A DNA stretch of 64,000 nucleotides from the NCBI GenBank assembly GCA_000991245.1, contig LBRD01000003.1, forward strand, positions 6,734 through 70,733, given 5' to 3'. Position 1 is the stretch's first letter. Each line of letters opens with the position of its first letter. Below, in pieces: positions 41,445-42,384 of the stretch. Source of the stretch: Parcubacteria group bacterium GW2011_GWC1_36_108 (GTDB lineage: Bacteria; Patescibacteriota; Minisyncoccia; Moranbacterales; GWC2-37-73). Under the pieces are notes generated by a model that saw only the letters and a program-made list of their open reading frames with translations, ran no database searches and had not been told where the DNA came from. The translations under genes were made by a program, and so were the position numbers.

Positions 41445-42263
41445 TTAAAATGGGCTTTTGATGTTTCTAAGCATTGGATTAGTTACTTTCGTGTATATCT
41501 GTGTTGTTCTTATATTAGCATGTCCAAGCAATTCTTGTACATATCGCACATCAACCCCATTTTCAAGCAGATGAGTGGCAAAAGAATGTCTAAGTGAGTG
41601 AAAAGTGGCTTCTTTTTGAACCTCAGCTTTTTGCAGAGCATTTTCAAAAACTTTTTGTGCGCTACGCTCATCTAATTTTCCTCCGCGATTACTGGCAAAA
41701 ACATAATCATTTAAATCTCTAAGCGCAATCATATTAAGCAATTGTGGTTTCAATTTTTCTGAAATTACACTTATTCTATCCTTGTTTCCTTTAGCTCCTT
41801 TTATATGAATTGTTAATTCGTCTAAATTGATGTCTTTAATCTTTAAATTTATTGCTTCACTGACGCGAAAACCTGCGCCATAGGAAAGGGAAATGAGCAG
41901 CTTATGTTTCGGATTGCTTATGGAATCAATCATTCTTCCAATCTCATCCCTAGAAAGTACTACGGGCAATTTGCTGGCAGTTTTGGCAAATTTGATATCA
42001 ATTTCAATATTATTTTTAAAAACTTCTCTATAAAAGTATTTAATAGCTTGAAGATGCACATTCATCGTCTGTGAGGATTGTCCACGAGCTTGTTTTTCTA
42101 ATAAATATTTCTTAATTACTTCAATTTCCGGTTCGCGCTTAATAATTTTAATGTATTTGAAATATTCATTCAGACAAGACAAATAACTCTCAATTGTCCT
42201 TGGACTGTAATTTCGAAGTTTCAGTTCGTTTTTGATTTTTTCCAGCAACTCTTGGAGATTCAT
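41445..42263 (-). CDS. tyrosine site-specific recombinase (Xer/IntI-like, 272 aa)
   Basis: [9 protein letters not shown] N-terminal SAM-like domain; [10 protein letters not shown]; catalytic R (GFRVSE), K (KGNKDR), [11 protein letters not shown] and [15 protein letters not shown] (Tyr). There is no long insertion between the K and HxxR regions. Confidence 0.85.
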   Translation of the reverse strand: [272 protein letters not shown]

Positions 42264-42321
42264 AAAAAATATGCTATATTTTATTCATAAATCAGTGATG
42301 GTTGTATTATACTAAAAGTTC

Positions 42322-42384
42322 GCATAACCTGCAACTTTCAACATACTATCAAACACTAAGTTCGTATATAAAGGAGTTATGTGC
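42322..42384 (+). other. attI-like region: GCATAAC (42322-42328) ... GTTATGTGC (42376-42384)
   Basis: Inverted AAC/GTT boxes 113 bp or less from the recombinase start. 42376 is where similarity to the right end of cassette 1 begins. Confidence 0.4.

Follow-up and report, generated by a model that had tools for sequence, protein, structure and literature searches.

In the 64,000-nucleotide (nt) stretch of the Parcubacteria group bacterium GW2011_GWC1_36_108 genome analysed here (assembly GCA_000991245.1, contig LBRD01000003.1, positions 6,734 to 70,733 of the forward strand; 'the window' below), a gene for an Xer-type tyrosine recombinase lies beside a dif-like site, attI, from which an array of single-gene cassettes runs off divergently to about position 47125. 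We consider it rather likely that this is a cassette platform of the Candidate Phyla Radiation (CPR), here in a Moranbacteria genome, and that it is run by the window recombinase, whatever form its DNA substrate takes. The observations behind this reading are direct ones, i.e. the anatomy of the locus, its conservation and polarity, the covariation within the cassette-end sites, a signature at the cassette boundaries, and natural insertion and junction polymorphisms; from such sequence data we infer that the adjacent recombinase would be the catalyst of cassette exchange. The original prediction, i.e. a cassette array served by a recombinase that resembles integron integrases (IntI) but has no IntI insertion, is supported by an attI, attC-like sites, variable arrays under identical recombinases and a one-cassette insertion.

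Cassette array of the window

The array comprises three complete cassettes and one decayed cassette. Sites were detected with hidden Markov models (HMMs) of the 5′ and 3′ arms, which were built from 12 sites and whose matches were counted at E ≤0.01. The main features are as follows (ORF, open reading frame; aa, amino acids).

41445..42263, minus strand: Xer-type tyrosine recombinase gene, 272 aa, ATG start
42360..42387, plus strand: dif-like attI core GTTCGTATATAA-AGGAG-TTATGTGCAAT, the only match in the 64 kb window
42377..43358, plus strand: cassette 1, ORF 42490-43110 of 206 aa with no Pfam family, terminal inverted repeats 42376-42430 / 43111-43175
43162..43370, plus strand: attC-like site 1, arm HMM matches at 5e-06 and 8e-08
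43359..44694, plus strand: cassette 2, ORF 43528-44430 of 300 aa with DUF4116, terminal inverted repeats of ~110 nt
44567..44707, plus strand: attC-like site 2, arm HMM match, fold of -24.3 kcal/mol, z = -5.2
44695..46737, plus strand: cassette 3, ORF 44854-46431 of 525 aa with Glycos_transf_2 (family-2 glycosyltransferase)
46548..46750, plus strand: attC-like site 3, arm HMM match
46738..47125, no strand given: decayed fourth cassette with a reversed 56 aa ORF, 46849-47019 (minus strand), and its own promoter-like and terminator-like sites

Site 1 consists of the boxes R″ GCACATAAC (43167-43175) and L″ CCCATATCTGG, inner hairpins, and the boxes L′ CAGATATGGG and R′ GTTGTGCG (43358-43365), and folds as DNA at -41.1 kcal/mol (z = -6.6 against shuffled sequences). 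The R″ box of site 2, CGCACAAC (44573-44580), is the reverse complement of the R′ box of site 1, and the R″ box of site 3, CAGCTAAC (46553-46560), is that of the R′ box of site 2, GTTAGCTG (44694-44701); site 3 itself closes with R′ GTTGTCGG (46737-46744) and has an extra G in L′ (CAGAT-G-ATGCC). The inner stem of the window sites reads nnCATATCTGG / CAGATATGnn and is accompanied by further hairpins. From the decayed cassette only a remnant of the 3′ arm is left (47091-47125, ..CTTCTCATAC..GTTGTGCGAAAT; arm HMM E = 0.069). With the end of a cassette joined to the start of the same cassette, which is the state of an excised circle, the junctions folded at -70 to -77 kcal/mol (-69.6 kcal/mol for the reconstructed junction of site 3), these hairpins being long because every cassette also carries terminal inverted repeats of 60-110 nt.

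Cassettes 2 and 3 share mutually complementary 5′ and 3′ untranslated elements (43399-43456 / 44736-44793 and 44505-44565 / 46486-46546), which include the ribosome-binding region (AAGAGGGGTAAT vs ACCCCTCTT), so that the mRNA ends could pair. The window gave no Rfam matches at the gathering threshold. A scan of the array for sigma-70 promoters and terminators gave no excess over shuffled sequences and is therefore uninformative on a Pc-like promoter.

Occurrence and polarity in other loci

For comparison, 49 CPR loci were collected through recombinase relatives of 55-82 % identity (L-numbers denote the loci or contigs compared). All 75 arm matches in the recombinase-anchored loci lie upstream of the recombinase gene and on the divergent strand, with none in 376 kb downstream or on the other strand; none was found in 24 non-CPR loci either, and in the window outside 43162-46750 there was none at E ≤0.01, only the weak remnant at 47091-47125. 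Rather than coming from genomes free of such arrays, the case held against the original prediction, the orthologues are accompanied by arrays at 25 of the 31 loci that have at least 1 kb of upstream sequence. Moreover, the contig ends within 300 bp upstream of the recombinase gene in 16 of the 49 loci and equally close downstream in none, as expected when an assembly meets a region that varies within the population.

At least 120 metagenome contigs contain one exact copy each of TTCGCATATAAACGAGTT, an 18-mer from the core of attI. At these site-anchored loci all 105 arm matches lie on the array side and strand, and the opposite 392 kb hold none. Both sets pooled, 180 arm matches are all on the array side and strand, with none in ~770 kb of the other side. 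Across loci the cassettes carry single accessory or defence genes, i.e. restriction–modification (R-M) systems, HepT/MNT, HicA, SMODS, Fic, APH and NUDIX.

Core sites also occur without an adjacent recombinase gene, several of them with arrays (L132, L251, L195, L177 and L162). In L132 (6939-7066), the promoter, attI and the first four recombinase codons are kept, with the remainder of the gene lost; the L251 site comes after a 400 aa ORF that resembles tyrS by its sequence motifs. Considering that sites lack an adjacent recombinase, the enzyme must be able to act in trans, and the sites outnumber the genes.

A second architecture places the 18 nt core ~100 nt downstream of a 39-46 % identical recombinase, on the same strand (L244, L137, L248, L242, L169, L229 and L247). 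L248 and L169 have a common left flank and diverge right after GTT, with R′ = GTTAnnGGYAAG; on the contigs of this architecture, the arm HMMs detect no sites. Multi-site arrays of the same arm family are also present on viral-labelled contigs, i.e. L091 125-2405 (IMG/VR 3300037796_000177), L089, L094, L098, L101 and L110, with no recombinase in the stretch fetched. A scan of viral contigs for the 3′ arm returned 42 single matches, about the estimated chance level.

Site architecture and the boundary rule

The cassette end is an imperfect palindrome of 90-450 nt (median 153 nt) of the form 5′-ACATCnnnnAAC-A-[L″ nnnnCAYATSYGG]...variable hairpins...[L′ CTTCRSATRTGnnnn]-nnnC-GTTnnnnGAAAT-3′. The 4 nt variable core of each R′ box tends to recur, as its reverse complement, in the R″ box of the next site: the match is exact at 13 of 26 junctions and one base off at 6 more (15 matches when read by eye, two non-matches being parsing errors), whereas R″ and R′ of the same site match in only 2 of 30 cases. 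With shuffled partners the mean number of matches was 2.3, and none of 20,000 shuffles reached 13. This match between R′ and the next R″ is the integron signature of a site that is split at the crossover.

In an alignment of 40 sites, the L″/L′ stem is paired in 95.6 % of the cells, compared with 30-39 % in slid controls, and compensatory double changes are seen at 8 of the 12 L″/L′ pairs; covariation scores 0.315 vs 0.135 for shuffled alignments, of which none in 500 reached the observed score. The variable R core pairs poorly within one site, as the boundary rule predicts. All 40 sites have an asymmetric box spacer, of 1 nt at the 5′ arm vs 3-4 nt at the 3′ arm. Mismatches of the CA/AA kind are conserved in the outer R box (ACATC vs GAAAT), and the site interior is variable. 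The attC sites of integrons are characterized by three unpaired features, namely extrahelical bases, an unpaired central spacer and a variable terminal structure (PMC5027507). In every cassette site, the L′ box together with the spacer resembles the left arm of attI, so that a folded site would rebuild a dif-like duplex with an unpaired centre.

The attI site and the region upstream of the recombinase gene

The attI site, with the consensus TTCGYATATAA-nnGAG-TTnnnnGAAAT, is placed ~115 bp upstream of the recombinase start codon. It fits the layout of Xer sites (~28 bp, two 11 bp arms around a 6-8 bp centre), and its consensus AGTTCGCATAT-AAACGAG-TTATGTGAAAT agrees with the arms of the Escherichia coli dif site, the sequence of which was checked in MG1655, at 8 of 11 and 10 of 11 positions, with a centre of 6-7 nt. 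The crossover would fall between G42376 and T42377, on the edge of the right arm. When 34 attI regions are aligned, a distal TTCGCATAA repeat, kept ~46 nt upstream of the attI core, is followed by TTCGCATATAAACGAGTT, four variable bases and GAAAT; conservation before the variable bases stops exactly after GTT, and beyond GAAAT it is gone. In the window, this repeat and one neighbouring element of the alignment read as follows.

42318..42328, plus strand: GTTCGCATAAC, which repeats the left arm of attI in direct orientation at a distal position and holds GCATAAC
42304..42312, minus strand: GTATTATAC, i.e. GTATAATAC on the recombinase strand, beside the distal repeat, in near-invariant columns

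The GTATTATAC / GTATAATAC element is probably the -10 box of the recombinase promoter. The original prediction had combined GCATAAC (42322-42328) and GTTATGTGC (42376-42384) into an attI-like inverted pair. Both positions are right and both motifs lie in elements conserved in the 34 loci, GTTATGTGC being the crossover box of the conserved attI, but they do not form a pair: GCATAAC belongs to the direct repeat of the left arm, and the sequence that is truly inverted relative to GTTATGTGC lies in the end region of the first cassette, as GCACATAAC (43167-43175). Taken alone, an inverted pair of 6-7 nt is insignificant in AT-rich DNA.

To the right of the last or only GTT, after the terminal R′ or an apparently empty attI, GAAATGTCGC(T/G)C...GCTCCATTTC recurs (L004, L012, L014, L020, L031, L034 and L132) and may represent the sequence that originally bordered the insertion site on the right.

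Evidence of cassette movement

In blastn comparisons, the homology of related loci to the window ends at 42378-42388, and homology from array to array ends at the GTT of R′ (44697 and 46737-46739); the latter is where homology ends in L017 and L042, which have site 3 in common. No cassette ORFs common to different arrays were found by blastn, the inter-ORF elements alone being shared. L006 and L007 possess an identical recombinase and the same downstream genes followed by different arrays, i.e. HinfI R-M, NUDIX, Fic and others in L006, and YunG, APH, Fic, NUDIX and HepT/MNT in L007.

A single insertion distinguishes L082 from L083: the former equals the latter plus one 889 bp cassette at ...ACGA|GTTA..., with 100 % identical flanks and a standard site at the cassette end. 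Misassembly is unlikely here because a 13 nt repeat cannot make such a join in a k=141 assembly. Moreover, among 40 locus pairs with at least 95 % identity over the 120 nt left of the site, 15 have unrelated sequence directly right of GTT, and these pairs form at least 8 independent groups.

The recombinase

Judging from its sequence, the window gene probably encodes an active Xer-type (XerA/'Cand' clade) tyrosine recombinase. All catalytic residues are present (R133, K161, H222-x-x-R225, H248 and Y257), as are the IntI-like blocks and the C-terminal ..KSPF on which the original prediction had relied, and Pfam assigns Phage_integrase and an N-terminal SAM-like domain. In NCBIfam, the protein scores above the cutoff of NF040815 XerA_Arch, described as 'site-specific tyrosine recombinase/integron integrase' (224.5 bits, cutoff 220), and below those of TIGR02249 for IntI (212.5 bits in two stretches, cutoff 265), XerC (186.7 bits, cutoff 335.15) and XerD (186.2 bits, cutoff 329.6). 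With the IntI model PRK15417, it reaches 132.5, below the cutoff of 435 and again in two stretches.

The best PDB sequence match by phmmer is VchIntIA (2a3v, E = 1e-45), closely followed by archaeal XerA (4a8e, 5e-43; 5hxy, 7e-42), with XerD far lower (2e-23). The VchIntIA alignment is split, residues 7-183 of the recombinase corresponding to 6-185 and residues 196-271 to 241-316; since 13 residues in the recombinase face 55 in IntI, ~43 residues of the IntI insertion are absent. The gap between the Lys block and HxxR, which had been proposed to leave no room for the IntI domain, measures 61 residues (K161-H222) and not ~55. A comparison with VchIntIA by structure prediction, likewise suggested at the outset, agrees: the AlphaFold2 (AF2) model (pLDDT 77) shows no counterpart of the IntI insertion helix, residues 180-198 forming a loop with short strands and no helix. 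Its structural matches are, in this order, IntI, XerA and XerH, including 5hxy, 4a8e and 5jk0, and its Foldseek alignment to 2a3v spans 312 columns for the 272 aa query. The IntI-specific additional domain (~35-45 aa, situated at patch III and containing the I2 helix) was thus not found in the PDB alignment, the AF2 model or Foldseek.

Recombinase variants of 279-280 aa occur in L015 and L018, both of the metagenome-assembled genome (MAG) UBA4824, and in P0074, P0079 and P0107. The 7 aa insert (ACLPMRQ), read directly in L015 and L018, sits in the same loop as the large insertion of IntI, and this loop therefore tolerates insertions.

An identical protein (100 %) is found in Candidatus Moranbacteria GW2011_GWC2_37_73. 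Relatives number in the thousands, the top 120 being 71-89 % identical and nearly all equal in length. The clade is probably the same as the 'Cand' subgroup, i.e. simple, Xer-related tyrosine recombinases of candidate phyla that are presumed to substitute for Xer (Smyshlyaev et al. 2021, PMC8138268); that paper reports no site or cassette array.

Dedicated integrase or housekeeping Xer

The genes downstream of the recombinase in the window are the following.

40941..41429, minus strand: def, which begins 15 bp past the recombinase stop
39858..40820, minus strand: fmt, next after def

The original prediction had pointed to this arrangement as possible co-transcription with housekeeping genes. 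The linkage is real in the window, but it is kept in only four lineages, and in others the recombinase is followed by GT4-holB, dksA-lspA or lepA. As the linkage is not conserved, it tells little about the function of the recombinase, and def-fmt synteny was rejected as a functional clue. The recombinase is 89 % identical where the adjoining Def and Fmt reach 64-67 % identity, and the MAG UBA4824 has two recombinase blocks (L015 and L018), which are homologous only from GTT to just past the stop codon. Together, the differing neighbours, the two-copy MAG and the unequal identities are evidence that recombinase and attI behave like a portable block. A tRNA-linked island was rejected because the tRNA scan of the window found no tRNA genes.

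These data bear on the possibility that the protein serves above all as the only housekeeping Xer of the cell, like XerA, XerS or XerH, which would make the adjacent site a dif or a copy of it and the cassettes hitchhikers like integrative mobile elements exploiting Xer (IMEX), with the platform as a by-product. This overlaps with the cassette-platform reading, only the primary role being different. In its favour are the NF040815 score, the presumed role of the 'Cand' subgroup (PMC8138268), the similarity of both attI arms to dif, the very strong conservation of the recombinase, its action in trans on sites without an adjacent gene, and the finding of no second tyrosine recombinase in the window or within 10 kb of any locus. 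A primary housekeeping role nevertheless appears unlikely, because the block occupies differing neighbourhoods between lineages, is present twice in one MAG with homology over recombinase and attI only, and is better conserved than Def and Fmt beside it. In addition, the GC skew has one sign on either side of the window site, where the flanks measure ~40 kb and ~20 kb, and the same holds for at least 10 other loci, among them a 1.27 Mb contig. The site is hence not at a skew-defined terminus, although the outcome at the site-anchored metagenome loci was mixed. On the ground of the GC skew, attI as the chromosomal dif at the terminus was rejected for the window genome. The enzyme may be dedicated to the cassettes or may have a dual role, in which case it would perhaps also resolve chromosome dimers at another site.

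Proposed mechanism and alternative explanations

Cassettes would enter attI at G|TT and accumulate on the divergent strand. An excised circular cassette would present its palindrome as single-stranded DNA, and by pairing of L″ with L′ and R″ with R′ this strand would fold into a duplex mimicking attI, with a left-arm box and a right-arm box on either side of an unpaired, asymmetric spacer. The recombinase would then swap one strand with attI at G|TT, and replication would resolve the product, as in integrons and in CTXphi integration. CTXphi is a precedent for a plain Xer that uses a folded hairpin, its attP(+) hairpin rebuilding a dif-like duplex with an unpaired centre. Taken alone, the single-strand hairpin step has, in our view, about an even chance of being correct.

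Several observations weigh against the platform or against this step. The evidence is sequence-based, and no circular cassette junction was observed; all 24 contigs of the window's own species have the same array; and the in-array fold of site 3 is insignificant (z = -0.9). The boundary rule fails outright at ~5 of the 26 junctions, only 14 of the 40 sites have an extrahelical base, i.e. an additional base in L′, and many distal cassettes of the arrays have no recognisable site. Among the metagenome matches listed, the recombinase adjoins the site in only 36 of the 89 loci with enough flank, and 13 arrays have no adjacent recombinase. The chief reason for caution lies in the protein: the I2 helix, a part of the IntI insertion, is seen as the novelty that made the recombination of single-stranded attC possible (PMC7790495), and the IntI domain is held necessary for integron activity in a passage of PMC9668308 that cites Messier & Roy 2001. 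For a recombinase without I2 helix, the substrate may therefore be duplex DNA.

The same platform could accordingly work by classical recombination of duplex with duplex, the 3′ arm (L′-spacer-GTTnnnnGAAAT) being an attI-like duplex site and the 5′ arm and the palindromy having another function, for instance as terminators or in mRNA structure. Besides the missing helix, the agreement of attI and the 3′ arms in box order and 4-5 nt spacing would fit such a scheme, which leaves unexplained, however, why R″ should be able to pair with the start of its own cassette and why L″ and L′ covary. The asymmetric spacer (1 vs 3-4 nt), the CA/AA mismatches and the recurrent extra G are, moreover, unpaired marks typical of folded sites, and we regard duplex exchange as improbable. 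Still less credible is a switch by segment inversion, as in shufflons or Fim, in which the recombinase would flip ORFs between inverted boxes with the same 4 nt core: the R′/next-R″ inverted repeats around each ORF, extended by the terminal inverted repeats of 60-110 nt, would suit it, but the array ORFs are nearly all co-oriented, the 24 contigs of the window species include no inverted variant, and the polymorphisms seen are insertions and replacements with no inversions. Finally, that the palindromes are intergenic repeats like repetitive extragenic palindromes (REP) or miniature inverted-repeat transposable elements (MITE), lying next to the recombinase by coincidence, can practically be dismissed, since all 180 arm matches fall on one side and strand of the site and no copies lie elsewhere in the window, even though other dispersed repeat families exist in the genome.

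Other repeats in the window

A dispersed MITE/REP-like repeat of ~114 nt with the hairpin core TGTCATTCCCGTGAAAACGGGAATCCAGGAC has copies of 68-95 % identity at 4985-5098, 40825-40938, 50631-50744 and 53810-53851, the second of which fills the def-fmt gap. Runs of a 9 bp periodic motif (AAAGTTnAT / TAAAGTTnn), which may be promoter-associated or regulator-binding arrays, occupy many intergenic regions in both orientations (3206-3249, 7637-7796, 17317-17407, 21290-21408, 29233-29362, 49866-49918 and 63248-63375). Two 76 nt segments 46.6 kb apart (2466-2541 / 49163-49238) form an inverted repeat of 99 % complementarity with a partial copy at 37530-37588; it gave no tRNA or Rfam match, and a related stretch is present in L034. 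A direct repeat of 104 nt with 97 % identity (6530-6633 / 9341-9444, with a short third copy at 38943-38973) directly follows stop codons and may be a shared terminator element.

Comparison with known systems

The literature, searched though not exhaustively and hence without proof of absence, describes no cassette arrays or integron-like systems in CPR/Patescibacteria. If the platform reading is true, integron-like gene capture extends to the CPR, and a hotspot is identified where these tiny genomes keep defence and accessory genes. Whether such capture is widespread in the CPR and perhaps in other phyla, with a plain Xer-like integrase that does not need the I2 domain, we judge to be evenly balanced; such a system would be either ancestral to integrons, the starting state then combining a dif-like attI, an Xer-like enzyme and a CTX-like folded site, or an independent invention.

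The pdif modules of Acinetobacter (PMC9771954, PMC9455709) are likewise accessory-gene modules bounded by Xer-type sites. They differ in being plasmid-borne, dependent on the host XerC/D and bounded by inverted full pdif sites, with neither attI nor hairpin architecture nor polar array. Archaeal XerA, XerS/difSL and XerH/difH resemble the CPR recombinase in size and domain layout, in agreement with the NF040815 score above cutoff and the matches to 5hxy, 4a8e and 5jk0, and the xerS gene adjoins difSL as the CPR recombinase gene adjoins its site; their sites, in contrast, are single, lie at the terminus and are not followed by cassette arrays.

Related, too, is XerCD/dif with IMEX, above all CTXphi, reportedly the subject of work by Val et al. 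in 2005 and Das et al. in 2013. Here, too, an Xer-type enzyme without an extra domain acts on a dif-like target, and successive insertions build arrays. The folded single-strand hairpin that mimics the target, the exchange of one strand and the replicative resolution would also be common to both, being only proposed on the CPR side. In contrast to CTXphi and other IMEX, the CPR units are single-gene cassettes that lack genes for phage functions or replication, their target lies off the skew-defined terminus, and the recombinase gene is usually beside the site.

With integrons, the CPR system shares a recombinase gene divergent from the array with attI beside it, and single-gene cassettes that end in an imperfect palindrome R″-L″...L′-R′ with crossover at a conserved G|TT, the R″ box of a cassette matching the R′ box that precedes it. 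Common to both are also hypervariable arrays with defence and accessory cargo that gain cassettes at attI (L082/L083 and the 15 junction polymorphisms); the unpaired spacer, the occasional extrahelical base and the variable terminal structure may be a further point of agreement, and VchIntIA is the best PDB match of the CPR recombinase. On the other hand, this recombinase has no IntI-specific insertion and scores below the IntI HMM cutoffs; the R box is GTTnnnnGAAAT instead of GTTRRRY; the L box is strongly conserved in sequence and resembles the attI left arm; the sites are long (median 153 nt, up to ~450 nt) and branched; the cassettes have terminal inverted repeats of 60-110 nt; and the site, hosted by CPR bacteria, is also found without an adjacent recombinase. 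What defines an integron is IntI with the extra domain that this enzyme carries. As the protein does not qualify as IntI, the CPR system is not classed as an integron sensu stricto, though it appears to work like one, and searches that require the IntI domain would presumably miss CPR arrays. If our reading holds, nature would offer in this system an intermediate that links Xer/dif, hairpin integration of the CTX type and integrons, and the origin of integrons would become open to direct tests.

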